DNA from: a virus
Taxonomy: Duplodnaviria; Caudoviricetes
Length of the DNA stretch: 64,000 bases
Reading direction: 5' to 3' (one strand)
IMG/VR virus record: IMGVR_UViG_3300031555_003155
The notes beneath the pieces were generated by a model that saw only the letters and a program-made list of their open reading frames with translations, ran no database searches and had not been told where the DNA came from. How positions within the stretch are numbered: position 1 is the stretch's first letter; each line of letters starts with the position of its first letter. Made by a program: the position numbers and the translations under genes. Of this stretch, positions 10,090 to 45,760 are shown one piece after another.

Positions 10090-12042
10090 TTAGAGATTAA
10101 TAATATTACTAAAATACTCTTTCTTTGATGTCTTTATTGTCTCTAATCCTAAACTAGCTAATATTGGATAGAATTTTTTAAGTACATTATAAGCTAACGT
10201 ATCGTAGTCAATAAATTCTAATATCCAATCTGGTATTTTATCCAGATTTCTTGGAATTGCTATAACGGGCACACCTTTCGATGATATTCTTTTATCAGGA
10301 TGATTTAAAATATTTTTTTCTATAATATCATATATTTCACGGTTCCTGTATTTCAATTTTTGCAATTCACTCTCTTGTGTAAGAGTTAATTTAACAATAT
10401 CTACTTTTGCAGGGAGTTCTATGCTCATATCTGGGTGTAAATAATTCCATGTTATAATTGCCCTAACTCCTTGCTCTTTAAGAGGTTCAGTATATGCTCC
10501 TAACTCTTTTACTGATTTTGGAATAAGATAAGTTCTATCTCCATTTTCTAGAGATTTCATTATTTCGTTTTCAAATAGTTCTAAGTCTTGAAGGATTGTA
10601 GATATATTTATTTCTTTACTTTGAAGTACTCTCTTCTGTACTATATTCTGAAATCTGCTCTTTGTTTCTTCAGTTGCAGTAGATTTCATGAATTCATGTC
10701 CTTTTATATCTATCTTTTCTGGGAATATCTCATCACCCTCACGTAATCGTATACTAGATACATATTTCTTTTTCTTATTTGACAAAATCATTCTTGAAAA
10801 TAGGAACTCATTTTTCATATTAATTTTATCTCTATATTCTTCAGGAATATTAGCATTAAGTGTATATTTACCCAAAGAGTCACCTATCATATTGGTTATA
10901 ATATATGACATAGTATTTATAGAAATAAAACGAAGTTCTTCCCTGTCTCTATTTGAAAAATCATCATTTGGGTTTATTATTGTATTAAACATATATTCTA
11001 CCCAAGGATTTAAATTCAACATATTAGAATCAGTGTCTATAGTTATAACGCATTTTCTTTTATCATTCTTTAATCGCTGAATGCGGTTTATTGGGGAATG
11101 ATTATAAAATACGAAATCTTTATAATACTCCCACAATTCTTTTAAGTGTCCTTCAATGCTCTCAGGAACTTTATTTGGATCTTTAAATTCTGTACTATTA
11201 TAAATTATGCTTGTTAATATTTGTTGTATGATATCTATATTAGAAAATTCATATAGATTATTTTTATAATATATTTTATTTAAATCTATTTGACTTAATG
11301 AAGATAAATATTCATAAATGATCTCCGTGTACGAATCTCTATAATCATAAAACATATTTATGATTCGACTTAGTACACTGCTTATAGATACATCTGGCAA
11401 TATATTAACATCATGTGAATATTCTTCATCTAATATATTAGATATGAATGACATACACTCATTTATATTATTGAATGCAACATTATTAGCCATAAATGAT
11501 TCAAATGCCAATTCTGTTGTGCTTATCAATGACTGTCCTGTTCCTGTTACAGATGGAGCAGTATATTTATTATGAAGAAATGATATTGCATTTCCAAATG
11601 TTCCATAAATTGAGTTAGCATTAACTTTTTCAGACATCTGTTTTCTATCATATGTTTTATATTCATATGATGTTTTGTCTGGTATAAATCTAAGTTTTCC
11701 TTTGAACAATTTACGACTTGTTAAAAATTTTTGTATCATTATAGCTAACGGATTTATCACTTCATGTTGATTTTTATAAAATACACCAAATCCACCACAT
11801 ATAGGTTTAGTTGTTTTTACCCAATCATATACTTCTAATAATGAAGATTTAATACTAACATTAGCGTAGTTATTATCGATAATACACTCAGGGTTATTTA
11901 AATTATTTTTAATAATTTCATCTAAAAACAAATTAATTTCTTTTTTAGATATTTCGGGATGCATTCTTTTTAAAATCTTTCTAACTTTTCTTCTCCATTC
12001 AGTTATAAATATGTGTTTTTGTTGTTTACTCAATGAATTCAC
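10090..12042 (-). CDS. family B DNA polymerase, C-terminal half (motifs B and C, thumb)
   Basis: QMSEKVNANSIYG (motif B), TIDTDS (motif C), KKKY, IKG; no exonuclease domain or motif A. Confidence 0.85.
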   Translation of the reverse strand: MNSLSKQQKHIFITEWRRKVRKILKRMHPEISKKEINLFLDEIIKNNLNNPECIIDNNYANVSIKSSLLEVYDWVKTTKPICGGFGVFYKNQHEVINPLAIMIQKFLTSRKLFKGKLRFIPDKTSYEYKTYDRKQMSEKVNANSIYGTFGNAISFLHNKYTAPSVTGTGQSLISTTELAFESFMANNVAFNNINECMSFISNILDEEYSHDVNILPDVSISSVLSRIINMFYDYRDSYTEIIYEYLSSLSQIDLNKIYYKNNLYEFSNIDIIQQILTSIIYNSTEFKDPNKVPESIEGHLKELWEYYKDFVFYNHSPINRIQRLKNDKRKCVITIDTDSNMLNLNPWVEYMFNTIINPNDDFSNRDREELRFISINTMSYIITNMIGDSLGKYTLNANIPEEYRDKINMKNEFLFSRMILSNKKKKYVSSIRLREGDEIFPEKIDIKGHEFMKSTATEETKSRFQNIVQKRVLQSKEINISTILQDLELFENEIMKSLENGDRTYLIPKSVKELGAYTEPLKEQGVRAIITWNYLHPDMSIELPAKVDIVKLTLTQESELQKLKYRNREIYDIIEKNILNHPDKRISSKGVPVIAIPRNLDKIPDWILEFIDYDTLAYNVLKKFYPILASLGLETIKTSKKEYFSNIINL

Positions 12043-12734: not shown

Positions 12735-13190
12735 ATGCTTTTTGGTAATGACGGTCACATTGACAACGAATACATTAGCACTGAATCAATGAACTATATC
12801 ATGGAAGCTGCTATGAGAGAGGGCTTAACTGATGAAGAACTTTCTATGTTCCTTGAGAACCAAACAGAAGTAAATGCTGCTCTTAACGAGAATATTCTTA
12901 TGGAGAAGACAATTGTGCGTTTAGATAAGAAAGCAAAATTATCTAAAGCTCACAAAATGGCTATCTTTACAATTGCTAAAGAAAAGAAAGATCCTAAATA
13001 TAAGAAGCTCGTTACAGTATGGAAAATGGAACGTTTCTTAGAAGCATACTTAGCAAAGAAGTACGGCAATGAAGCACTTCGTAGAGCTAAGAAAGCTGTT
13101 CAGAATTCTCAGAAGTCATCTTCAAGTATGGTTCAGAAAGCAGCTAACAAAGTTAAAACACAATTGAACGGTGATAAAGTTAAAAAGTAA
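12735..13190 (+). CDS. putative internal head protein (acidic propeptide, basic mature part)
   Basis: Late promoter; N-terminal ISTES/IMEAA/FLEN/LMEK sites followed by a Lys-rich helical region. Confidence 0.55.
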   Translation: MLFGNDGHIDNEYISTESMNYIMEAAMREGLTDEELSMFLENQTEVNAALNENILMEKTIVRLDKKAKLSKAHKMAIFTIAKEKKDPKYKKLVTVWKMERFLEAYLAKKYGNEALRRAKKAVQNSQKSSSSMVQKAANKVKTQLNGDKVKK

Positions 13191-13325: not shown

Positions 13326-15164
13326 ATGAAATTTTTGGGACCAAATGTAGACAAAGATAATATAATGCTATTAGATGTTTTATATCATAATGGTAATAAA
13401 GACACAGAATATACTGATTATATTGATATTATCTACAAGAATACAAAAAGTGGAGAGAAATTATTAAAAACTATAGAAAAGCCAGAAATAGAAATTTATT
13501 TCACTAAAGAAGAATATAGAGATTATGATTATAATAAAACTTTTATGGAATTGGACAAGACAGAAAAGCATACTGTTCCATATAAATCATTGCCATGGTA
13601 TATAGCAAAACAGGCTGGAGAACAATATGTATCTCAATTAAAAAATTATATAGAATTGGGTAAATATAGAGATATATCTAAAATTCATGCATATCCATAT
13701 GTATTTGGTTCAGATTGTCCTATAGATGCATTTTATAGAGTCAATTGGTTATTAGAATATGATAATGAAGCCGAGAAGAAAGTTACAAAACAATTTCTCG
13801 ATATTGAGGTTGATACAATAGATATTGAGGGCTTCCCAAGAGATGGAGAATGTCCTATTAATGCAGTAACTATTGTTGACGAAGAAGGTATGGCATGTTA
13901 TACATTCTTATTAAATAATCCCAATAATCCTTTAATAAAAGAATTTATAGATGATATAGATTCATTTATAGATGAACTGCATGATATGTTCGATGAATCC
14001 TATGGGGTGCTGGATTATCAGATATATATGTATGATGATGAAAGAGACCTAATAATTAGCACATTTAGATTAATCAATACATTGAAGCGCGATTTTATGT
14101 TAATATGGAATGGTGGTGGGTTTGATATACCATATATGATTGAAAGAATAAAAGTATTGGGGTTGAAACCTGAAGATGTTATGTGTCATTCTGACTTTCC
14201 TGTTAAACGATGTAGATTTATTAAAGATACTAAAAACTTTGCAGTCGCGAATAAAGGTGATTGTTTAAAATTATCATCATATACTAAATATATAGACCAA
14301 ATGATATTATATGCAGCAACACGTAAAGGACAAAGCGAACTTCGTTCTCATTCATTGAACTTTATAGCACAACATGAATTAAATGATGATAAGTTAAATT
14401 ATGATGATGAAGCAAACATCAAAACTTTACCATATAAAAATTATAGAAAATTTGTAGCATATAATATAAAGGACGTTTTGCTTCAATTTGGTATCGAAAG
14501 AAAAACTAATGATGTTGATGGACTTTATTTACGTTCATATTCAAATGCAACAGATTATGATAAAATATTCAAACAAACGGTTATGCTTAAATGTCGTGCC
14601 TATTACGAATTTTTATTACAAGGCTATATTATTGGTAATAATATAAACGTCTTTATACCGAATGATGGGGAAACTTTTGCTGGGGCAATAGTTGGAGATC
14701 CGATGTTAAATTCTCATACAGGAATATCGATATTTGGTAAAAAAAGTATGTTTGTCTATGATAATGTAACAGATATGGATTTCTCTGCAATGTATCCCCA
14801 TATAATTATTGCATTTAATATTGAAAGAAATACTATGATAGGAAAACTAATTATACCAGGTTTTGAAGAGGACAGATATGAGCATTTCTATATAACAAGT
14901 AATACGGCGACACAAACAGAAGATGATGAAGAAGAGGATGATGAAAACGATTCATTATCATCAACATATGATGCTGGTAAAGACTATGTGGATAATATGT
15001 TGTGTGGAGATGTTATTAGTTTAGGAACAAAATGGCACAATTTACCTGATTTTGAAACTCTATATATGGAATTCAGAAAACAGTATAATATAAAACCAAA
15101 AGACAGATTTTCATTATCTCGTATAACGAAAAAATTTATAGAAGCAATAAAAATTGATATATAG
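13326..15164 (+). CDS. family B DNA polymerase, N-terminal half (3'-5' exonuclease + motif A)
   Basis: ExoI FLDIEV, ExoII WNGGGFDIPY, ExoIII YNIKDV, FAGAIV, motif A DMDFSAMYPHII. Confidence 0.88.
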   Translation: MKFLGPNVDKDNIMLLDVLYHNGNKDTEYTDYIDIIYKNTKSGEKLLKTIEKPEIEIYFTKEEYRDYDYNKTFMELDKTEKHTVPYKSLPWYIAKQAGEQYVSQLKNYIELGKYRDISKIHAYPYVFGSDCPIDAFYRVNWLLEYDNEAEKKVTKQFLDIEVDTIDIEGFPRDGECPINAVTIVDEEGMACYTFLLNNPNNPLIKEFIDDIDSFIDELHDMFDESYGVLDYQIYMYDDERDLIISTFRLINTLKRDFMLIWNGGGFDIPYMIERIKVLGLKPEDVMCHSDFPVKRCRFIKDTKNFAVANKGDCLKLSSYTKYIDQMILYAATRKGQSELRSHSLNFIAQHELNDDKLNYDDEANIKTLPYKNYRKFVAYNIKDVLLQFGIERKTNDVDGLYLRSYSNATDYDKIFKQTVMLKCRAYYEFLLQGYIIGNNINVFIPNDGETFAGAIVGDPMLNSHTGISIFGKKSMFVYDNVTDMDFSAMYPHIIIAFNIERNTMIGKLIIPGFEEDRYEHFYITSNTATQTEDDEEEDDENDSLSSTYDAGKDYVDNMLCGDVISLGTKWHNLPDFETLYMEFRKQYNIKPKDRFSLSRITKKFIEAIKIDI

Positions 15165-15968: not shown

Positions 15969-18209
15969 GTGATGGCTAGTAAATCAAAAAAACCTGACAC
16001 AGAACAGGAAAAGAAAAAACTTCTTGACCTGAATAACTTGTTTAGACAAACTGTTACAAGCATTTCACAAAGCATGGATGGGGTAGACACATCACGAGAT
16101 AATGAAATAGATATATTATCAACAAAAATTGATAATATAATATCTAATGAATTGAATAATACTAAAAGTATCACATCTGATGATATGTCAACATTTTTAG
16201 TTAAATTATTTAATGATTTTGACCAAAGAGATAATGTTGATAAAAAGGATATACAGGGTATATTTACTGATGAGTCGTCTGGGTTATTTCAATTCTTTCA
16301 GCAACGATATCAGAATAAGAACTTATTGTATGAAGACTTAAACATGATAACTCAGCAATTATTTGAATTGGATGAAGCGGTATTGACAACGCGTGATGCA
16401 ATAATAACATCCGATGATATATCTCAAACCATATCAAGAACTATTGGATTCACTAATGTAAATAAAGACGATAATGAATACAATACTTATATAAAAACAG
16501 TAGAAGAATTAGAACGTCGATTATCTCTTCCTAAAAAATTAAAAAATATGGTTATTCCAAATACATTAACATATGGCAATTACTATGTTTATGTATGCCC
16601 ATATTCAAAATTGTTTGAACAACAGTATGTCAATAAACTCAAAGATATAACAACAAGAGATACATTAAAAGAATCTATAACCGAAAGCTTTATTGCTGAA
16701 TTTAAAGAATCACCTGTAATTAAAAATTCAACATCAATATCAAATAAAGATTTAAAGAAACAATTCGAATCATATGCAGATGGTATACGTGTATATAATG
16801 ACATATATTCGATACCATTATTAGAAGGAACCGATTTGACTGCATTATTAGATACCGATAAATTTAATAAAAACAGAGATACAGCAATTAAAAATGCAGA
16901 AAAAGTTGCATCAGCATATGATGGCACTATTGATGTTGATAAAAAAGTTGAAGGAATGTTTGATGAGCAATCAGGTTGCTATATTAAATATATAGAACCT
17001 AAAAAAATGATACCTGTAAAAATTTTAGATACAGTAATAGGATATTATTATATCCATGATGTAGATTTTCAGGTAAATAAATCACCATTTTCAACATCAA
17101 TAAAAGTAACAAGTGGACTTCAACAAACAAATGAAGAAGTAGAAACTATGTTTTTATCAAAGATAACTGATAAAATAGTCGCTTCATTTGATAAGAAATT
17201 CTTAGAAAATAATATTAAATTTAAAGATATGATTTTAAACGCATTATTATATAATGATTTATATAAAAAACAAATAACTTTCCAATTTATTCCAGCAGAT
17301 TATGTCGTTGAATTTAAAGTAAACGAAGATGTCGATGGAAATGGTCAGTCTATACTTGCTAAATCATTATTCTATGCTAAATTATATTTAGCATTATTGA
17401 TATTTAAGATGATATCTATAATAACTCGTTCAAATGATACCAAAGTATATTATATAAAAAACAGCGGAATGGAAGCTAATATAACTAATAAAATCCAAGA
17501 AGTTGCCCGTTCTGTAAAAGGACGTCAAATAAACTTCATGGATTTATTAAATTATAATTCTATTATATCAAAAATAGGCGCATACAAAGAGATATTTATT
17601 CCCGTAGGCAGGAGTGGGGAACGTGGAATCGAATTTGATATATTGTCAGGACAGGATGTTCCATTAAATACAGATTTGATGGAAATGCTTAGAAGCAACA
17701 TGATAAATGGAACTGGGGTACCATCAGTAATAATGAATTATGTTAATGAGGCTGATTACGCTAAAACGCTTGTAATGGCTAACTCTAAGTTTGTCGGTCG
17801 TGTTGTTTCATTACAGATGGATATAAACCCATCAGCAACAGAGTTATATAAAAAGATTATGATGTTTTCTAATATTGGTATTCCGCCAGAAGCTATAGAT
17901 GGGTTTGTATATACACTTAATTCACCAAAATCATTAAATACAATGAATATGACAGATATGATATCGAACGCAGACCAAGTTGTATCAAATGCAATTAAAG
18001 CCAAAACTGGCGAGAATGCAGACCAAACTGATGATAATAATAAGATTAAAGATTTAATGTATAATAATCTCATTAGACAATACTTACCCATGATTAATTG
18101 GGCACTAGTAGATGAGGCTTATGAAAATGCACAAATTGAATTAACTAGACTAAAGAAACAAGCTGAAACTCAACAACCTACTGATGATAATCAAAATTCT
18201 AATTATTAA
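15969..18209 (+). CDS. portal protein (T4 gp20-like)
   Basis: SIITRSNDTKVYYI and EIFIPVGRSGERGIEFDILSG parallel the T4 gp20 RAPxRRVxY and DYWL..R...EVDTLPG blocks; GVPS motif. Confidence 0.8.
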   Translation: MMASKSKKPDTEQEKKKLLDLNNLFRQTVTSISQSMDGVDTSRDNEIDILSTKIDNIISNELNNTKSITSDDMSTFLVKLFNDFDQRDNVDKKDIQGIFTDESSGLFQFFQQRYQNKNLLYEDLNMITQQLFELDEAVLTTRDAIITSDDISQTISRTIGFTNVNKDDNEYNTYIKTVEELERRLSLPKKLKNMVIPNTLTYGNYYVYVCPYSKLFEQQYVNKLKDITTRDTLKESITESFIAEFKESPVIKNSTSISNKDLKKQFESYADGIRVYNDIYSIPLLEGTDLTALLDTDKFNKNRDTAIKNAEKVASAYDGTIDVDKKVEGMFDEQSGCYIKYIEPKKMIPVKILDTVIGYYYIHDVDFQVNKSPFSTSIKVTSGLQQTNEEVETMFLSKITDKIVASFDKKFLENNIKFKDMILNALLYNDLYKKQITFQFIPADYVVEFKVNEDVDGNGQSILAKSLFYAKLYLALLIFKMISIITRSNDTKVYYIKNSGMEANITNKIQEVARSVKGRQINFMDLLNYNSIISKIGAYKEIFIPVGRSGERGIEFDILSGQDVPLNTDLMEMLRSNMINGTGVPSVIMNYVNEADYAKTLVMANSKFVGRVVSLQMDINPSATELYKKIMMFSNIGIPPEAIDGFVYTLNSPKSLNTMNMTDMISNADQVVSNAIKAKTGENADQTDDNNKIKDLMYNNLIRQYLPMINWALVDEAYENAQIELTRLKKQAETQQPTDDNQNSNY

Positions 18210-28576: not shown

Positions 28577-30526
28577 TTATTCGTTGATAACGTAATCTGC
28601 AGAAACAACAGTGCTCGGAATCATACCTGCTTTAACAGCAATTACTTTAAGTGTGCTTGTAGCAGCGATTGTTACAGCACCGTTAACTAATTCTGATGTT
28701 GTTGTCGGCTCATTACCGTCTACAGTGTAGTAGAGATTTACTCCAGGTGTTGCACAGCTAATTGTTACTGTCTGAGCGCCTGTGTATGTACCAGCAGCTA
28801 AGCTGATTACAGGTGCAGCAACCTGAGCTGTTGCAGGAGCACTAGGATCTTTTAAACTAAACTGATTGTCAAGAATATGGAACTCACCCTGAACAGGAAG
28901 AACTTCAGTTGTAATAAATCTAGATGTACCCATAACGTTCGGAGTAAGCGGTGTTAATGCATTTCTATATGCATTTTCGATGTTCAAGCTATATTTATAG
29001 TGCTTGAATGTGATAACTTCTTTTGTAAGAGGATATGCAACAACACGGAGACCACGTGATTTCGGGCATTTCATTGTGCTGATTACATGAATTCTGTTCT
29101 TATTAGCGGTCATAACACCGAATCTGTAGTCGAGCTGAATACCACCGATCTTGGTGTCTTCATCAATTACCCAACGTACATTATCCTGGATAAGGCTGAT
29201 AAGGTTCGGATGACCATATACAACGAACATTAAGTCCTGATTACGTAATTTAACTTTTAATTCGTCAATGAAACGATTTAAGTCAAATTTTAATTCGCTG
29301 TCGATCCACTGTGATCTTGTAACGAATTTATTTGCCGGAGGTTCGCAGTTGAAGTAACCTTCTTCAACGAATCCATCAGTGTAACCGAATGGGAGGTCTT
29401 TTCTTGTTCTCCACATATCATAGCTATTATTCAAGAAACCAAGAATTTCGCTATCTTCATACTGTGTTAATACAGTACTCATATCGGCAATGATTTCTGT
29501 TGTAATATCGAAATCAAATAAAGCTTTATAATCTTTGATCTTTTCGAGTGTTAAACCAGTGTTGATACGTGTACCATCCGGAATCTTCCACTCTAAAAGT
29601 TCTCTTTCTCTGTCAAGTTCGATTGTTTCTGTGTTGTTTTCATTTGATAAGTGTCCGCCAAACTGTACCTGTGTGATGAGACCCTTAGTTGAAGCACATG
29701 AAACTAAACCGTTATAGAAGTCAACCTGACCAACGAGAATATCTTCAACGGTTGTACCGTCATCTTTTACATACTTAACTCTGTATGTAAATGAGCTGTT
29801 TGCAGCCATGTTAGGTGATACGTTCACTGCAACAGGAACAACTTCACCATCTACTGTAAGCATAACGCTCTGAATACAGAAGTCGTAAGCAAGGCTATCA
29901 CGGCGAGCGATTGAACCGCCACTTTCTTCAAGAATATTTAAATCCTGGAACGGTAATGTTGAACCGGTAGGATAATACTGTGAAGATACCTGAGCACCCT
30001 TACCTTTATTCATGATTTCTTTATATGAATCATCATAGAAGATATCCGGAATATAATACTTCTTACCAGCAGCATCTTTCAAGAAGCGTCTTTCATAAGC
30101 AGCTTTGATGATGGGCTTAGTAGGAACTTCGGTCATAACGATATCTTTTGAATGACCTTCGATATAAGATTTCTTTAAGATAGGTAAGCTGATACCAACG
30201 ATAGGAGCAAGTGCTGCTACACCAGATTCGGTAAGCATTTCGAGAGAAGAGTTCTCGAATAACTGCTCAAGTTTCTGAGGCATCATTGAATAGTAAGGAT
30301 CTTCGAAAGAGCTTTCCATTACATCGCTTAAAAGCATGTCTTTATAAGCTTCTTTCATAGTATCTACTCTAAGGATTTTTGTAATGTCCGTGATTGCATC
30401 CATTTGATAGGTGCTTTGGAATCCTTCGAACAAGTTCTTTACGTTATCTTTGAAGTCTGCATTCTTATCGTGTGAGAATGAGCCAATAACTTTAACCTGC
30501 TCAGGATTATCTAAATACTCATACAT
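28577..30526 (-). CDS. major capsid protein with C-terminal Ig-like (Fn3-associated/CHB_HEX_C-like) domain
   Basis: High-expression codon usage, propeptide ending near LTESG, own late promoter and terminator; C-terminal APVIS...YYTVDGNEPT...TLKVIAVK. Confidence 0.82.
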   Translation of the reverse strand: MYEYLDNPEQVKVIGSFSHDKNADFKDNVKNLFEGFQSTYQMDAITDITKILRVDTMKEAYKDMLLSDVMESSFEDPYYSMMPQKLEQLFENSSLEMLTESGVAALAPIVGISLPILKKSYIEGHSKDIVMTEVPTKPIIKAAYERRFLKDAAGKKYYIPDIFYDDSYKEIMNKGKGAQVSSQYYPTGSTLPFQDLNILEESGGSIARRDSLAYDFCIQSVMLTVDGEVVPVAVNVSPNMAANSSFTYRVKYVKDDGTTVEDILVGQVDFYNGLVSCASTKGLITQVQFGGHLSNENNTETIELDRERELLEWKIPDGTRINTGLTLEKIKDYKALFDFDITTEIIADMSTVLTQYEDSEILGFLNNSYDMWRTRKDLPFGYTDGFVEEGYFNCEPPANKFVTRSQWIDSELKFDLNRFIDELKVKLRNQDLMFVVYGHPNLISLIQDNVRWVIDEDTKIGGIQLDYRFGVMTANKNRIHVISTMKCPKSRGLRVVAYPLTKEVITFKHYKYSLNIENAYRNALTPLTPNVMGTSRFITTEVLPVQGEFHILDNQFSLKDPSAPATAQVAAPVISLAAGTYTGAQTVTISCATPGVNLYYTVDGNEPTTTSELVNGAVTIAATSTLKVIAVKAGMIPSTVVSADYVINE

Positions 30527-31226: not shown

Positions 31227-32849
31227 TTATTTTTCATCTAAGCGATATTTGATACGTTCGATATCCTTTTCGAGTTTCTGTTTAATTCTCATTAATTCAT
31301 ACTTCTCTTTACGTTGATTATCGCTCTTAGCATCATCGATTTTTTCATTAACAATCTTTAATTCACCTTCAAGGTCTTGAAGGATTTTTTTACGTTCTTT
31401 TTCATCTAAACGCTTATCAATAGCCCAAGCTGTTAATGTGCCGATTATTGCTATTAATGGATTTACTAATCGAGCACCTGTTATTCCATTGGCTATTAAT
31501 TTACCTGTAGCGATTGTTAATATTCCTTTTTTAAGGAAATTTGATAATTTAAATCTATATTTTCCTGTAATTATTCTGTTTCTTCTCTCATCAGAATCTT
31601 TTTTCTTAATCTCATCAATAGTATTATTAATAGCATTTATGAATGGGTCGGTAACTTTATTGATAGCAGTATCTATACGCTTAACGTTACCAACAACCTT
31701 TCTAGCTTTATGCAATACCTTTCTACCAGATTTGCCTATAGCATTTGCCGCTTTAGATATACCTGTTGCAGATTTACTATCTTCTTCGAGAATCATGCCA
31801 TTTAAGAGGGTTGTTTTGTTATATAGATTAACTATACTTTCGATAACTGTATCGTCGAATTCGTCATCTTCATCGAATACCATATTTGTTATAGTGTCTT
31901 CAATTTCAGCAACTATATCTTCAACAACAGCTTCATCATACTGAATTATATCGGGTTGCATTTCTGCAACGCCTTCTTTAACAATACCACAGTATTTTCC
32001 TAACATATCTGATGCTCTACGGATTTTATCCATATAATCACGATATATTACATACTTTCTATTGTCTCCATCTTTCAGTTCCTTATACATTGTAGTTATT
32101 TGTTTATTCATAATATTTATATATGCTTTAGCCTGACTCTTGGATACTTTTAATTCTATTATCTTTTCGGCAATAGTTATAGGCATATCTGTCAATACCT
32201 GAGCAGGTGTTCCGCTCATAGGGATTTCTAAAGCAACAAGCATCTGAGTGCTCTTTTCTATCAGTTTTGGAAAACTAGAAAGATATTCTGTTGTATGACT
32301 TGTTTTTATTCGTCTAAGGAGTAATTCATAATCAGTAATCGTTTCAGGATTATAATTTATATTATGAATTAAAATCTCCATCTCATCAACAAGATAAGAT
32401 TCAAATAAACAACCAGAATTGGCTCTATTAATATAAAATTCCATCTGAACTTCATCTTTGATATTTTTTACATCATTTTTCTGTTCTATAGTATCATCTA
32501 TAATGTCGACAGTATTTTCTAATTCTTTTATATGATCCCCATCCACATAATTAGATTCTTTTAATGTTTTTATAAATGTCACAAGACTTTCTTTCTGGAC
32601 TTGTAATTCATTTACATTATCATATGAAGTGCGTATGATATGGTTCATAAATGACGTGCCCTGTGATGGGATTGTGTACATATATGATAAATTTTCTTTA
32701 ATAACATTTGTTGGCTGGTTTCTAAATTCATTCATAAATAAAATCCTATTAGCTGGAGTATCATTCGCCTTTAATTGGTTAAATGATTCTCTTAACGCAT
32801 CTATTTTAGGTTTTTTAGAATTTAGAATACTTTCTTTATTTATATACAT
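31227..32849 (-). CDS. putative internal head protein
   Basis: Many [ILV]xE[SAG] sites; hydrophobic segment LVNPLIAIIGTLTAWAI; C-terminal coiled coil. Confidence 0.55.
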   Translation of the reverse strand: MYINKESILNSKKPKIDALRESFNQLKANDTPANRILFMNEFRNQPTNVIKENLSYMYTIPSQGTSFMNHIIRTSYDNVNELQVQKESLVTFIKTLKESNYVDGDHIKELENTVDIIDDTIEQKNDVKNIKDEVQMEFYINRANSGCLFESYLVDEMEILIHNINYNPETITDYELLLRRIKTSHTTEYLSSFPKLIEKSTQMLVALEIPMSGTPAQVLTDMPITIAEKIIELKVSKSQAKAYINIMNKQITTMYKELKDGDNRKYVIYRDYMDKIRRASDMLGKYCGIVKEGVAEMQPDIIQYDEAVVEDIVAEIEDTITNMVFDEDDEFDDTVIESIVNLYNKTTLLNGMILEEDSKSATGISKAANAIGKSGRKVLHKARKVVGNVKRIDTAINKVTDPFINAINNTIDEIKKKDSDERRNRIITGKYRFKLSNFLKKGILTIATGKLIANGITGARLVNPLIAIIGTLTAWAIDKRLDEKERKKILQDLEGELKIVNEKIDDAKSDNQRKEKYELMRIKQKLEKDIERIKYRLDEK

Positions 32850-33403: not shown

Positions 33404-33846
33404 ACATCAAACACCCTTTCGTATTCTATATTATTTATTTTTAGATTTCTCTAAGCATTCATTACGTTTTTTCATTAATCCTGCAATGAAGTTATCGTTA
33501 ACCTTTTTAGCATACGCACGACTAGCTCCTTTAATTTTACCAGTCGTAATTGTGCCAACTAAGATAATGCCCCATAAAGTATATGATATATAAGGGATGT
33601 ATCCTGCTAAGAAATCCATGAGATTTTCATCCGGAATTTTATCAATAATCTTATATATAGATTTTGCTTCAGTGATTGCTTTATCATATAATTTTAATGC
33701 CTCTTTATATTCGCCTTTCTTTTCAAGTTTCTTAGCTTCTTTCCAATGTTTTTTAGATTCTTTTTTAATGTCACTAAAATCAATCTTCAAAGCCTCCCAA
33801 GATGCCGCAGCTTCTGTTGTTATATAGTATTCATCATCTGAACTAT
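33245..33846. repeat. 62-bp identical direct repeat within a 540-bp tandem gene duplication
   Basis: 33245-33306 is identical to 33785-33846. Confidence 0.9.
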
Positions 33847-33940
33847 ATAATAATGATTCAGTTATCGTTATGAATGCATTAATATCCATTTCAACACAAG
33901 ATTCTTTTAAATTATCATTTGAATTGTTTGTAAAAAACAT
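33431..33940 (-). CDS. putative virion protein, paralog of 32891..33403
   Basis: Tandem duplicate; late promoter at 33968-33979. Confidence 0.7.
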   Translation of the reverse strand: MFFTNNSNDNLKESCVEMDINAFITITESLLYSSDDEYYITTEAAASWEALKIDFSDIKKESKKHWKEAKKLEKKGEYKEALKLYDKAITEAKSIYKIIDKIPDENLMDFLAGYIPYISYTLWGIILVGTITTGKIKGASRAYAKKVNDNFIAGLMKKRNECLEKSKNK

Positions 33941-33967
33941 AAAATCTGCCCCTTTCGATTATATAAT

Positions 33968-33979
33968 TACCATAATGTT
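33968..33979 (-). promoter_or_regulatory. late promoter AACA-N6-TA
   Basis: AACATTATGGTA. Confidence 0.7.
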
Positions 33980-34011
33980 TTTGAATTACGATCATAATAA
34001 TTGTGGCAACA

Positions 34012-34023
34012 AACAATATTTTA
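34012..34023 (+). promoter_or_regulatory. late promoter AACA-N6-TA
   Basis: AACAATATTTTA, divergent from the 33968 copy. Confidence 0.7.
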
Positions 34024-34052
34024 AATATAAATCTAAGAAAGGAATGAGTTTC

Positions 34053-34883
34053 ATGAATAAACAAGAAGTAGCCGCTTATCTTATCATGGAATCAACATCC
34101 GAACCGTCAAGAGTAGACAATCTTGAAGTGTTCGACAAGAATAGTTTATTCTATTTACGATTTGATACAAATCTTCAGGATTTTAATATTCGCAATAGAA
34201 ATAGACGTATATATATGGGTAATGCCATGGTTCCATCATTACAGGCTGAGCACATAATCGAACTTCAAAATAAAAAATCTTGGTTCGGTGAAGCTGGTCA
34301 TCCGATGACTGATGATATTAAACGTATATTAACTATAGACCCTAAATTAATATCTCATAAAATAGTATCTCATACTGCAACCAATACTGGATGTAAAGGT
34401 ACTATTGAGACATTAGATAATAAATATGGTCGTGAAATGACAAAACACATTCTTCAGGGAATGGAACCAGCATTCAGTTTACGTGCTCTTGCACCATTGG
34501 TTAAAAAACCAAATGGCGACTCAGTTGTTCAATCTAAAGCACATGTCGTTACATATGACTGGGTTATTTTACCTAGCCATAAAACTGCATATAGAGATGA
34601 AAGTAAACCCGTTGAAAAAATTATCAAAAAAATAACAGATGGTGGTAATACTGTGCAGGAATGTGCAATAACTCCTGTTCAGGAATCAATGATTAAAGAT
34701 TTTATTGCAATGGAATCGACTAACGTACATTTAATTTCTAATGTATGTGAAGTTGCATTAGAGTCTATGCAGTTAACTGATGATTTAAAGAATGTAATAT
34801 TGAAAGAGAATAATTTAACATATGTCGTATCTCTTGAAGATAAAATTTCTCACGATATAAATCAGTATATGAGAAATTTATAA
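34053..34883 (+). CDS. prohead protease (T4 gp21-like)
   Basis: NRNRRIY, GEAGHP (catalytic His), AFSLRA (catalytic Ser), TYDWVILPS; start reassigned to ATG 34053 after AAAGGA. Confidence 0.88.
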   Translation: MNKQEVAAYLIMESTSEPSRVDNLEVFDKNSLFYLRFDTNLQDFNIRNRNRRIYMGNAMVPSLQAEHIIELQNKKSWFGEAGHPMTDDIKRILTIDPKLISHKIVSHTATNTGCKGTIETLDNKYGREMTKHILQGMEPAFSLRALAPLVKKPNGDSVVQSKAHVVTYDWVILPSHKTAYRDESKPVEKIIKKITDGGNTVQECAITPVQESMIKDFIAMESTNVHLISNVCEVALESMQLTDDLKNVILKENNLTYVVSLEDKISHDINQYMRNL

Positions 34884-42357: not shown

Positions 42358-42369
42358 AACAATTCTTTA
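42358..42369 (+). promoter_or_regulatory. late promoter AACA-N6-TA
   Basis: AACAATTCTTTA upstream of the 1123-aa gene. Confidence 0.7.
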
Positions 42370-42388
42370 ATAAAAATGAGTTGAAAGG

Positions 42389-45300
42389 ATGATTACAATG
42401 AAGACTACAAAATATAAAAAACTCAAATGCCCTTTATGCGATGACTCATATACAAAAATAGAGGGGCTTTACGCACATATTGAAGATGAACATGATGATG
42501 AACTTCCACAAAATTATACCCCTGCAAGATATTTATATTATTTAAAAACAGGAAGAACTTCAGGAAGTTGTGTCATTGACCATAAACCAACAGATTGGAA
42601 TGAATCTACAGGGAAATATAATAGATTTTGTAATAACCCAAAATGTAAAGAAAAATATAGAGAAGAGTTTAAGAAACGCATGATGGGTAAATATGGTAAA
42701 GTTAATTTATTAAAAGACCCAGAGCAACAGAAAAAGATGTTAGCACATAGAAAAATCTCCGGAGAATATGTGTGGACTGATGGAACTAAAGTCACATATA
42801 CAGGTAGCTATGAAAAAGAATTTTTGCAGTTCTTAGACGTATTTATGAATTTTGAAAGTTCTGATATTATGGCTCCGTCACCACACACATATTACTATAC
42901 ATATAATGGAGAAAAATTATTCTACATACCAGACTTCTTTATACCATCATTAAACTTAGAAGTTGAAATAAAAGATGGTGGAGATAACGCTAATAAACAT
43001 CCAAAAATCCAAGCTGTTGATAAAGTTAAAGAAAAATTAAAAGATGAAGTTATGAAAACCCAAAAAGACTATGATTATATAAAAATAGTTAATAAAAATT
43101 ATGATAACTTCTTCGAATATTTATTATCCCAAAAAGAAAGTGTCGAGTCTAAAAAATCCGGAGCAGCAGGAACTATATTGACTGAAAGTATTAATAACTT
43201 CGATTTATTATTAGAAATGGATATTGATTATGATTTACGATTCACCAAATCAATTAAACAAACAAAAGAAATAATCGACACACTGGATGAGGAAGATATA
43301 AAGAGTATTAATATACCAAAAACTCAAAATCCAAATTATTCGATATATAGAGAGGTTGCTGTATTCGGTGGTGTTCCTGTAGCATTCATCGAAGTGTTTC
43401 AATTTCCGAATATGAAAAAAGATGAGGCTGCAATAATATTAGTATGTCGAACTGAAAAGAAATACAAAGGATATCATAATTCAGCACTACTTATAATGCG
43501 AATGCTTAATGCATTGCGTAATGAAAGCATAAGAACCGTTAAATGGGTATTTAATAACACTAATGAGAAAACGGCACTGAATAAAAAGAATTTTAAACTT
43601 AAACCGAATGGTGAAATTGTGTTGGAAGATTCTAATACAATATGTGAAGATCCTCATCTATTTCCTGGAGAAGACAAATTAAATGCGGTAAAAACTTCTA
43701 TAAAAAATGATACTGTTATAGTATTAAATATTGATGAGTTCCCACAAAATACGTTTATTACATCCGATTTGCATTTATATCGAAATAATGATGGGAGCAA
43801 CGTTGCGGAGATGGTTAAGAATATAAATGCTAATGTTAAGCATGATGATACATTAATTATTCTTGGTGACATCGGATATAAAAAAGACCCAGATATGAAA
43901 GAGCATATTGAAAGATTTTTAAACGATATAAACTGTTCTCATATATGGTTGGTTATCGGTAACCATGATATATTAGATATTGATGATTATATTGAGCTAG
44001 GATTTGAAAAGGTGTGTCATAGAATTAATTATAGAGGTCATTCGTTGACACACTACCCAATACACAATTCCGATGGAATATCTGTACATGGACATCTCCA
44101 TAATGAGTATCTTCCGTTTGAAGATGAACCTACTGACGATGAAAGATTTCGCAACGTATATTATTACACCAGACCAATTAAGAGTATTAATGAGTACATT
44201 AATGAAAATATGATTTTAGATGAAGGTCTATTTAATTTTAAAGGACGTCAATTATATTATATATCAAAAAATAAAAATGAAAAATTTAATAAATCAACAG
44301 TATTTACTGCAGATAAAAAGAAAGCATTGTCCTGGTTTATGGAACAAAATAGCAATATAAAATATAAGGAAATAAAAAAATCAGAATATTCATCATGGTT
44401 TAAAGATACGACTGAATTGGTTATTGATAAATCATTAGAAGGTAGAATAAATGATAAAGTATACCTATACACTGTTAGTAAGTCTGCATTTGATTCTATT
44501 GAAGAGTATGGTAACTATATTAAAGATATAGAAAAGCTTAATATATTAAATACGGAAGAGATTAAACTGATAGATTTGATACAGCAGGTTGGAATTAAAG
44601 TTACATTTAATACATCAAATCCTGCGGAAATATCCAATAGAAAAAAGATTGTGTCAACTCTTCGTAGCAGATTTCAATCATTAATATCTAAATCAGATTA
44701 TGTGAAATTTAAAACAACAAAAAGTTTAATTCTTGATTTAGATTCTGAGGATGTTGAGGATTTTGTTAATGGAAATTCTGATAGATTGTCATTTATTCAT
44801 TATGATTTAAATAAGTTTTACAATAATAAAGCAAGACAATATATGAATGAAGATTCAGCAAAAGAATATTCAGATCTATATAAAGCATTCACAAATGAAT
44901 TGTTATCGGATAAGACATTATCTAAAATAACTATAAAATCGGATGGTGATTGGGATGATGGTAAATACTCTGCAGTAATTAAATCTGATAATAAGAGCAT
45001 AATGGAATCATCTGAATCTTCTATATTAGAAGCTAATTTCGGTGGATTCTTAACAAAAAAAGAAATAAATCCATCAAAAATAAAAACTCCTAAAGATTTA
45101 TTAAATGTATTAAATACTTGGGGATATGGATTATTAACTAAGAATAAAGAAGTTATAACTAATGATATTGAACCCGAGCAATTCGCAGATTTATACAGAA
45201 CCATATCGCCACAAGATTTTGAAAAATATAAAGTTGGTGTGTGTTGGGACTATACTGAATATGAAAGATATTATTTCAAAAAATACTTTGATTATAAATT

Positions 45301-45760
45301 CAAGACATACTATATAGAATTGGATAATTTATCTTCATCAACTCATACATTTTTAGTGTATGAAGACTCTGGTAAATATTACTATTTTGAATCATCATAC
45401 AGAAGATATCAGGGTATACATGTATTTGAAACAATGCAGGATGTATTCAACTATGTATTAACTGCTATGTTTAGAGATGAGGGTAGAACGTATCCTTATG
45501 CTATATATGAATATACCGAAATGCCTTCAGGATTAACTACTTTAGGATTTATGGATATGCTTATAGTAAATGGTAAAAAAATATATCACACATATAAACT
45601 ATATCGTTTAACAGAAAGTGTGGATATTCCTGTATTAAAATCGGAATATCCTAAATGCACTATGAGATGTTCATTAATGAGCAAGTATGCTGATAGAGGT
45701 ATTGATTGTAGGAAAAATTGCAGACATTATGCTAATATGCTAACACACATTGAAGAATAA
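42389..45760 (+). CDS. multidomain late protein: C2H2 Zn finger + PD-(D/E)XK nuclease, GNAT-like, metallophosphoesterase, ART-like/unknown, transglutaminase/papain-like
   Basis: CPLC...H...H; YIPDFF...EVEIK; SDLH, GD, GNHD, HGHLH; GVCWD...THTFLV...YYFE. Confidence 0.75.
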   Translation: MITMKTTKYKKLKCPLCDDSYTKIEGLYAHIEDEHDDELPQNYTPARYLYYLKTGRTSGSCVIDHKPTDWNESTGKYNRFCNNPKCKEKYREEFKKRMMGKYGKVNLLKDPEQQKKMLAHRKISGEYVWTDGTKVTYTGSYEKEFLQFLDVFMNFESSDIMAPSPHTYYYTYNGEKLFYIPDFFIPSLNLEVEIKDGGDNANKHPKIQAVDKVKEKLKDEVMKTQKDYDYIKIVNKNYDNFFEYLLSQKESVESKKSGAAGTILTESINNFDLLLEMDIDYDLRFTKSIKQTKEIIDTLDEEDIKSINIPKTQNPNYSIYREVAVFGGVPVAFIEVFQFPNMKKDEAAIILVCRTEKKYKGYHNSALLIMRMLNALRNESIRTVKWVFNNTNEKTALNKKNFKLKPNGEIVLEDSNTICEDPHLFPGEDKLNAVKTSIKNDTVIVLNIDEFPQNTFITSDLHLYRNNDGSNVAEMVKNINANVKHDDTLIILGDIGYKKDPDMKEHIERFLNDINCSHIWLVIGNHDILDIDDYIELGFEKVCHRINYRGHSLTHYPIHNSDGISVHGHLHNEYLPFEDEPTDDERFRNVYYYTRPIKSINEYINENMILDEGLFNFKGRQLYYISKNKNEKFNKSTVFTADKKKALSWFMEQNSNIKYKEIKKSEYSSWFKDTTELVIDKSLEGRINDKVYLYTVSKSAFDSIEEYGNYIKDIEKLNILNTEEIKLIDLIQQVGIKVTFNTSNPAEISNRKKIVSTLRSRFQSLISKSDYVKFKTTKSLILDLDSEDVEDFVNGNSDRLSFIHYDLNKFYNNKARQYMNEDSAKEYSDLYKAFTNELLSDKTLSKITIKSDGDWDDGKYSAVIKSDNKSIMESSESSILEANFGGFLTKKEINPSKIKTPKDLLNVLNTWGYGLLTKNKEVITNDIEPEQFADLYRTISPQDFEKYKVGVCWDYTEYERYYFKKYFDYKFKTYYIELDNLSSSTHTFLVYEDSGKYYYFESSYRRYQGIHVFETMQDVFNYVLTAMFRDEGRTYPYAIYEYTEMPSGLTTLGFMDMLIVNGKKIYHTYKLYRLTESVDIPVLKSEYPKCTMRCSLMSKYADRGIDCRKNCRHYANMLTHIEE

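Follow-up and report, generated by a model that had tools for sequence, protein, structure and literature searches.

A stretch of 64,000 nucleotides (the window), which derives from an uncultured jumbo phage that is AR9/PBS1-like and occurs in animal faeces, carries on its plus strand an open reading frame (ORF) at positions 42389-45760 that encodes a 1123-aa protein made of unrelated enzyme modules. We consider it probable that this is a polyvalent protein packaged into the phage head, where it would ride on a resident virion nuclease and be cut apart by the phage prohead protease, a member of the Peptidase_S80 (S80) family. The N-terminal nuclease (N-domain) is followed by a GNAT-like fold, a metallophosphoesterase, a two-lobed module, a transglutaminase-like domain and a short Cys-rich mini-module (Table 1). 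Packaging, cleavage and ejection of the protein, as well as the targets of its enzymes, are inferred.

The main support for this reading comes from the placement of protease-type sites between the modules. Module borders were set without using the sites, from BLAST homology breaks against relatives of other architectures together with AlphaFold confidence. The homology breaks delimited residues 1-250, 283-404, 425-595, 613-864, 885-1070 and 1078-1114, recovering the modules that the initial annotation had proposed for this protein, and the reading frame was confirmed to be open throughout. We defined a strict site as [ILVMAF]-x-E-[SANG] (Phi-x-E-[SANG]) and a loose site as [ILVM]xE. All six strict sites (E266, E606, E612, E873, E881 and E1076) fall in the inter-module gaps, which make up 8.5% of the chain, as do 10 of the 21 loose sites. 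In a hypergeometric test among Glu residues, this corresponds to p = 3.4e-6 for the strict and p = 1.7e-5 for the loose sites. The clusters of [ILV]xE sites described earlier between the modules were borne out, and every quoted site was present (positions 264, 274, 411, 418, 600, 604, 610, 871, 879 and 1074). The AlphaFold predicted local distance difference test (pLDDT) value is below 50 at residues 259-277, 596-617 and 868-890, that is, in the three linkers modelled. Furthermore, the counterpart of linker 3 in the relative P0003 keeps an LEEG↓LF junction at the start of the module (arrows mark cut positions).

The same motif is found at the capsid maturation site. The GenBank note on the major capsid protein (MCP) of phage phiR1-37, "mature N-terminus at Ser87", corresponds to a cut at MLQE86↓S87. 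At the homologous column, AR9 has ILQE↓S and the window has MLTE100↓S101, while 12 of 15 related phages conform there to Phi-x-E followed by S, N or A. LTE↓S is the exact sequence at residues 264-267 and 1074-1077 of the 1123-aa protein. As stated in the initial annotation, the motif occurs both in the MCP gene (28577-30526, minus strand; VME↓SS and MLTE↓SG) and in the protease. The latter carries LIME↓ST near its own N terminus, a site kept as I-x-E in homologs, as well as VQE↓SM, AME↓ST and ALE↓SM, three Phi-x-E↓S sites towards the C-terminal end. The enzyme had been described as a T4 gp21-type protease. Its family is Peptidase_S80 (phiKZ gp175) and not strictly that of T4 gp21. Additionally, in the clade with Ala at position P3 of the MCP site (AVE↓S, ATE↓S), Ala also appears in the first-linker sites (AALE↓S and IATE↓S among others), whereas such linker Ala is not seen in clades whose capsid site has L, I or V at this position.

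We then turned to the relatives of the protein. A search of 5.8 billion proteins returned 88 relatives of 617-1966 aa that have in common only the N-terminal 21-24% of the query. Their cargo includes GNAT, metallophosphoesterase, HAD, SNF2, SET, NUDIX, P-loop kinase, transglutaminase-like, WDGH, DUF6582, DUF362 and M23 domains. The check proposed at the outset, for orthologs that share one N-terminal domain, differ in their cargo and keep the Glu of the linkers, gave this very picture: the N-domain is N-terminal in 102 of the 103 proteins containing it, the cargo is highly variable, and the alignment column of E276 in the first linker holds Glu in 59 of 62 non-redundant relatives, the linker being otherwise unalignable. 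The conserved first-linker site has V, A, I or L at P3 and S (35 cases), A, N or G at P1'. Across the 79 non-redundant members used for a family-wide motif profile, strict-motif density was 0.025 per residue at module starts and 0.006 inside modules, a 4.1-fold enrichment. Control motifs with Asp or Lys at P1 were flat (0.83-1.04-fold at module starts), and all Glu residues together were enriched about 1.5-fold. The sites are thus commoner in linkers than within domains, contrary to what had been named as a refuting outcome. The only relative with an internal nuclease domain is P0148 (873 aa), in which this domain spans residues 420-659 and a transglutaminase-like domain lies upstream (residues 14-184); it departs from the rule that the carrier is N-terminal, or is possibly a fused gene call.

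These numbers also bear on the strongest alternative, in which the protein is packaged but cut at the first linker only, or nowhere. Its cargo would then be one multi-enzyme chain, comparable to N4 virion RNA polymerase or P1 DarB, both uncut, and the later sites would be tolerated linker sequence. The first-linker site is indeed the best conserved by far: 76 of 79 relatives have one, compared with 20% of control windows; the joint between the GNAT and phosphoesterase modules is without a canonical site, and large cargo proteins delivered uncut are on record (PMC5512222). However, the enrichment at module starts is still 3.4-fold when the first linker is left out, the later gaps hold five strict sites (606, 612, 873, 881 and 1076), and modules are flanked by site doublets. 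We therefore regard delivery as an uncut or once-cut chain as unlikely.

The N-domain also exists alone. Among 75 complete genes in IMG/VR, 44 are standalone (235-269 aa) and 31 fused (289-1681 aa). About two-thirds of the standalone forms end in "...KPIFM[IVP]", where fused forms read "KPIFxxxE↓S"; the others end 10-12 residues earlier. Many standalone orthologs have their C terminus one or two residues before the first-linker site, and the predicted first cut would therefore recreate a nuclease of standalone length. On the N-domain tree, the fused or standalone state changes eight times, at least five of these changes being required by branches with good support. The length of the cargo differs even between nearly identical carriers, and cargo is swapped among close relatives.

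The orthologs of cultured phages place this domain among late genes and in virion preparations. AR9 gp233, phiR1-37 g237 and SA1 ORF234 ("endonuclease fused to N-terminal Zn finger domain"; DUF7487, phrog_15137) are orthologs of the N-domain at the same locus, and the N-domain gene is divergent from a baseplate-wedge gene in the window, AR9, BpSp, DC4 and phiR1-37. In the cultured phages the domain of 235-245 aa stands alone, whereas in the 1123-aa protein some 870 aa of cargo follow it after a protease-type linker. The phiR1-37 protein is annotated in GenBank as "phage structural protein", and SA1 ORF234 was detected with two peptides in a virion preparation by liquid chromatography-tandem mass spectrometry. 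As to expression, the AR9 late promoter consensus is AACA-N6-TA/G (PMC5312081). The motif AACAattcttTA upstream of the 1123-aa ORF conforms to it and ends 20-29 nt before the start codon, and AR9 g233 has a mapped late transcription start site (TSS) behind AACAatatttTA, a promoter of the same type. This agrees with the late promoter claimed for the gene in the initial annotation. The expression values of AR9 g233 (0.47, 141 and 1092 at 5, 20 and 40 min) follow late kinetics. Over the whole window, AACA-N6-TR was not enriched (103 found, 127 expected), so the motif is informative only by its position upstream of starts.

Could the protein instead be a late cytoplasmic multi-enzyme that is never packaged, its Glu motif being a linker feature with another role or the target of another protease? 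The virion mass spectrometry of BpSp did not list the ortholog, and the linkers are Glu-rich in general. Against this, the enrichment is specific to the motif, at about fourfold with flat Asp and Lys controls, the motif is identical to the capsid maturation site of the clade, orthologs were found in two virion preparations, and standalone forms stop at the first site. A purely cytoplasmic role thus appears somewhat less likely still than an uncut packaged chain.

Self-processing is another conceivable route, since the protein has its own transglutaminase/papain-like Cys-His-Glu domain. Iyer, Burroughs, Anand, de Souza and Aravind described in 2017 the polyvalent proteins of phages and conjugative elements, for which they proposed injection and release by embedded peptidases (PMC5512222). 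This published model favors the embedded domain as the cutting enzyme, and the C952/H986/E1001 triad is intact and invariant in the domain family. However, the domain occurs in only 25 of the 79 family members, so self-processing is not the general rule; 52 of the 54 members lacking it keep the first-linker site, and the motif matches the capsid site of the prohead protease. Self-processing is hence very improbable.

The N-domain itself matches phrog_15137 (4e-71 over residues 12-249), and tblastn found it in AR9, PBS1, S6-like phages, LPJP1 and phiR1-37 with 40-48% identity over residues 6-255. It comprises a C2H2 finger (residues 14-35), a second Cys cluster (C61, C81 and C86) and a core with D182, E193 and K195. 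Residues C14, C17, H30, H35, D182, E193 and K195 are conserved in an alignment of 57 N-domain sequences. The Pfam family DUF7487 scores in relatives only, and not on the 1123-aa protein. The AlphaFold model (pLDDT 86.8) aligned with TnsA (Z 7.8), I-Bth0305I (Z 6.9) and Vsr (Z 6.6) in VIA-align; Foldseek gave no match in the PDB at E <= 0.001. Of the former description as a T4 gp4/TnsA-like PD-(D/E)XK nuclease, the TnsA-like fold was recovered, whereas likeness to T4 gp4 was not seen: this protein is not among the top 50 BFVD or PDB matches, no direct comparison having been run. In the Fusobacterium phages JD-Fnp1/4/6/7, the nuclease core (query residues 59-205, mostly without the zinc finger) matches at or beside the gyrase subunit A gene (gyrA), which suggests that other large phages employ this fold as a homing endonuclease or in association with an intein. 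A selfish homing endonuclease followed by accidental or hitch-hiking fusions without a virion role, to which this gyrA position and homing-endonuclease neighbors in the fold and BFVD searches (I-Bth0305I and phage "putative homing endonuclease" entries) would fit, is the explanation to which we give least credence, the locus being fixed beside the baseplate-wedge gene in Bacillus, Staphylococcus and Yersinia phages rather than sporadic and insertion-like, the AR9 ortholog expressed late, orthologs found in virion preparations and the protease-type linker grammar conserved.

Under the favored reading of a head-packaged protein cut by the prohead protease, the polyvalent protein would be expressed late, and its N-terminal zinc finger/PD-(D/E)XK nuclease would act as the carrier into the prohead. 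There, the S80 (phiKZ gp175-type) protease would cut after the Glu of Phi-x-E↓[SANG] in the disordered linkers. The predicted products are a nuclease of about 31 kDa (residues 1-266), whose C terminus would lie within 1-2 residues of that of many standalone orthologs; the GNAT and metallophosphoesterase modules, together about 39 kDa and possibly cut further; a 30-kDa module of unknown function; a transglutaminase-like Cys-His-Glu enzyme of 23.5 kDa; and a Cys-rich peptide of 5.5 kDa. These folded products would remain inside the capsid until they pass into the next host together with the DNA. In that host, the delivered enzymes may act on proteins or nucleotides in takeover or counter-defence.

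Several points weigh against this reading. At 0.53 per 100 aa, the strict-site density of the protein is no higher than that of the window as a whole (0.68), and what is non-random about the sites is their placement, not their density; eleven loose [ILVM]xE sites lie within domains. At the GNAT-phosphoesterase joint, the only sites have Asp at P1' (VLE↓D and ICE↓D). Since Phi-x-E before a residue other than S, A, N or G is enriched only as Glu is in general, these are probably not true sites, and cleavage there is doubtful. The co-variation at P3 between MCP and linkers, suggestive as it is, amounts to about one phylogenetic event. Virion detection of the carrier is thin: the phiR1-37 evidence is a GenBank note, the SA1 list also contains replication proteins, and gp288 was not among the 23 proteins found by virion mass spectrometry of BpSp. 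Moreover, the gene adjoins a baseplate gene, and a head rather than a tail location we infer from the protease motif only. The cultured relatives in the phage collection searched (25 records) all have the standalone N-domain only. Finally, all known substrate cuts in SPN3US remove N-terminal propeptides, which are then degraded (PMC10052503), and cutting a chain of enzymes at several places would be a novel role for a prohead protease.

The arrangement can be set beside several known systems. T4 IPI-III and Alt have a capsid targeting sequence that is trimmed by the prohead protease gp21 after (L/I)-x-E, and are then injected. Similarly, the gene described here is late and near baseplate genes, and its effector enzymes are predicted to be head-loaded, clipped and injected. 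Unlike the targeting peptide of about 10 residues and the single cut of the T4 proteins, the carrier here is a folded nuclease of 250 aa that would itself be retained, several enzymes sit on one chain with cuts between them, and the protease belongs to family S80 instead of S77. MuF-anchored polymorphic toxins are a toxin family with which the present proteins share a conserved N-terminal domain, predicted here to reside in the head, and a variable C-terminal effector. The carrier fold is different, however, and published MuF work is not known to describe a protease-site grammar between modules. MuF and portal fusions occur in polyvalent proteins, and T4 Alt is packaged from a gene that, like the 1123-aa gene, lies beside baseplate genes (PMC5512222).

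The closest protease precedents are the prohead-protease substrates of phiKZ, 201phi2-1 and SPN3US (gp175/gp245; PMC10052503), which are cut after Glu, with Ser preferred at P1', by enzymes of the same S80 family. The heads of these phages also store ejection proteins (PMC10052503). The SPN3US protease gp245 cuts after A-x-E, prefers Ser at P1' and removes propeptides (PMC10052503), whereas here P3 is mostly L, I or V, retention of the N-terminal part is predicted, and cutting would part functional enzymes from one another. As in the polyvalent proteins (PMC5512222), at least two disparate domains share one phage-encoded polypeptide in a late/virion-gene context; the unrelated enzymes comprise GNAT, phosphoesterase and peptidase-like domains, with SNF2, NUDIX and kinases in relatives. 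Packaging and delivery with the DNA are likewise predicted, and architectures turn over rapidly. In contrast to the embedded peptidases proposed for those proteins, the joints here carry the motif of a prohead protease that has a gene of its own, and an embedded peptidase is missing from most members.

The description of polyvalent proteins does not mention AR9, jumbo phages or a zinc finger nuclease carrier (PMC5512222), and a later survey of jumbo phages only refers back to the polyvalent-protein idea. In the literature searched, we found no mention of DUF7487 or of a phage polyprotein cut by a prohead protease. The evidence points to a new carrier and to the capsid protease as the releasing enzyme. 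What is added here is a motif anchored on the annotated capsid N terminus of phiR1-37, the agreement of standalone C termini with the first site, a controlled family profile, and proteome and transcript data of orthologs. If the reading is correct, a tailed phage would use its capsid-maturation protease as RNA viruses use their polyprotein proteases, and one late gene would give a set of separate enzymes present as the DNA enters the cell. There would also be a defined carrier and linker grammar for loading jumbo-phage heads, useful for engineering AR9- or PBS1-type phages. Likewise, hundreds of metagenomic cargo modules (GNAT, phosphoesterases, SNF2, NUDIX, SET, transglutaminase-like and unknown folds) would become a list of candidate enzymes for takeover or counter-defence in the first minute.

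A more speculative extension, which we put forward tentatively and hold to be possible rather than likely, is that the DUF7487 nuclease is a plug-and-play chassis. Whatever enzyme follows a short Phi-x-E↓S doublet would enter the prohead with the nuclease, be freed by the S80 protease and be injected, and the sites would double as seams for cassette exchange between phages. The nuclease may even be an injected weapon that spares the uracil-containing DNA of the phage. AR9, PBS1, S6 and phiR1-37 contain deoxyuridine, which is the sole basis for the sparing idea.

The long ORF is not an assembly artefact, since an identical protein fragment (P0002) was found in another assembly and the module borders are spanned by independent contigs. 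A chimeric ORF was ruled out on the same grounds. Six animal-faeces metagenome runs contain the gene, at a phage coverage of about 3-6x, and the bridging contigs from these runs show zero differences. No RNA run was listed among those containing the gene. Three contig joints were disregarded, their sides being just 21-23 letters at 85% likeness. Searched by megablast against the phage collection, the gene gave no match. Because the ribosome-binding site gaaagga (42383-42389) abuts the first ATG (42389) and its spacing to ATG 42398, at 8-9 nt, is normal, the probable true start is M4. A record in a public protein atlas begins at the M4 residue.

The identities assigned earlier to the cargo modules mostly held. 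All quoted motifs are present: the C2H2 finger at 14-35, DLH460, GD493, GNHD524, HGHLH567, DGDWDDG852, GVCWD950 (C952), HTFL986 (H986) and FESS1000 (E1001). The GNAT identity of module 2 is supported transitively, its BLAST partners matching PF00583 or PF13302 on the aligned stretch and its atlas feature matches being GNAT every time (score 0.95-0.96). No direct Pfam match was obtained for module 2 on the 1123-aa protein (P0001), and its acetyl-CoA loop is atypical (KYKGYH versus Q/R-x-x-G-x-G/A). Module 3 matches phrog_547 (4e-17); PF00149 does not reach E <= 0.1 on the module itself and matches relatives aligned to it. The DUF553 Cys-His-Glu identity of module 5 comes from PF04473, which matches 13 of 34 aligned homologs (best E 3e-8) and does not match the copy in the 1123-aa protein. 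C952, H986 and E1001 are invariant in all 34. This module has 1319 relatives, standalone or within giant proteins. A profile of the C-terminal domain gave nothing meaningful against PDB sequences. The Cys-rich mini-module is 65% identical to residues 585-621 of the relative P0004, where it occupies another position.

The weakest of these assignments is the ADP-ribosyltransferase (ART)-like part of module 4, for which AlphaFold pLDDT is 74. Lobe a gave weak matches in the ART superfamily (MbcT, ParT, PARP13, LT, pertussis toxin S1 and Arr; Z 4.8-5.8), and no R-S-E or H-Y-E triad was identified in an alignment of five sequences only. A structure search with the module gave a MotB-like match (Z 7.0). 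Lobe b is an alpha/beta domain ending in DGDWDDG. The module has only three or four homologs; the atlas search returned no usable match for it, and BFVD one weak, uncharacterised match.

Table 1. Positions in the window of the features discussed in the text.
Feature	Coordinates	Strand	Remarks
Capsid protein maturation site LTE100↓S101	30224..30235	-	Counterpart of the GenBank-annotated MCP cut in phiR1-37
Prohead protease (Peptidase_S80)	34053..34883	+	Presumed cutting enzyme; PHROG head maturation protease 1e-20; PF20034 1.1e-7, above cutoff
Late-promoter-like motif AACAattcttTA	42358..42369	+	AACA-N6-TA/G consensus; predicted TSS A42369
N-domain, aa 1-256	42389..43156	+	C2H2 zinc finger and PD-(D/E)XK nuclease core; ortholog of AR9 gp233/phiR1-37 g237
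Linker 1, aa 257-282	43157..43234	+	Predicted disordered; ILTE266↓S, LLE276↓M
Module 2, aa 283-404	43235..43600	+	GNAT-like acetyltransferase fold
Linker 2, aa 405-424	43601..43660	+	VLE413↓D, ICE420↓D; P1' atypical
Module 3, aa 425-595	43661..44173	+	Calcineurin-like metallophosphoesterase; DLH, GD, GNHD and HGHLH in order
Linker 3, aa 596-617	44174..44239	+	Predicted disordered; INE602↓Y, INE606↓N, LDE612↓G
Module 4, aa 618-867	44240..44989	+	Two-lobed; lobe a ~615-740, lobe b ~742-867
Linker 4, aa 868-884	44990..45040	+	Predicted disordered; IME873↓S, ILE881↓A
Module 5, aa 885-1070	45041..45598	+	DUF553 transglutaminase-like domain; C952, H986, E1001
Linker 5, aa 1071-1077	45599..45619	+	RLTE1076↓S
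C-terminal Cys-rich mini-module, aa 1078-1123	45620..45757	+	CxxxC-x12-CxxxC

Besides the MCP and protease genes, the window contains genes for a terminase, a tail sheath protein and a multisubunit RNA polymerase beta-like protein. The protease ORF can be extended by 61 codons upstream of M62 (33870-34052). We take M62 as the start because homologs start there and a late-promoter-like AACAATATTTTA (AACA-N6-TA) lies at 34012-34023; the extension is probably not translated. Around the loci of the family, the protease gene was found within the 10-kb flank at six loci only. The MCP ends, at residues 577-645, in a CHB_HEX_C_1/Fn3-associated domain (PF13290, 1.2e-18) that does not align with the AR9 or phiR1-37 MCPs and aligns with those of a Parageobacillus phage and a human faecal phage. 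It resembles a capsid-fused domain for carbohydrate binding or decoration.

Other genes of the window also carry Phi-x-E-S sites. Two genes between those for the capsid protein and the protease encode products with such sites near the N terminus: at residues 21, 98 and 150 for the gene at 31227-32849 (minus strand), and at residues 13 and 28 for that at 33431-33940 (minus strand). Neither has a PHROG match, and both products are candidates for further substrates of the protease, or for scaffold/core proteins. In a virion structural protein of 746 aa (phrog_3004; 15969-18209, plus strand), three sites are clustered at residues 235, 239 and 247. It is possibly the portal, and recalls the portal propeptide of about 250 aa that is removed in SPN3US. 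Lastly, the highest Phi-x-E-[SANG] density of the window (3.3 per 100 aa) belongs to a small virion-structural-like gene (12735-13190) located between two DNA-polymerase-like genes on opposite strands (10090-12042, minus; 13326-15164, plus).

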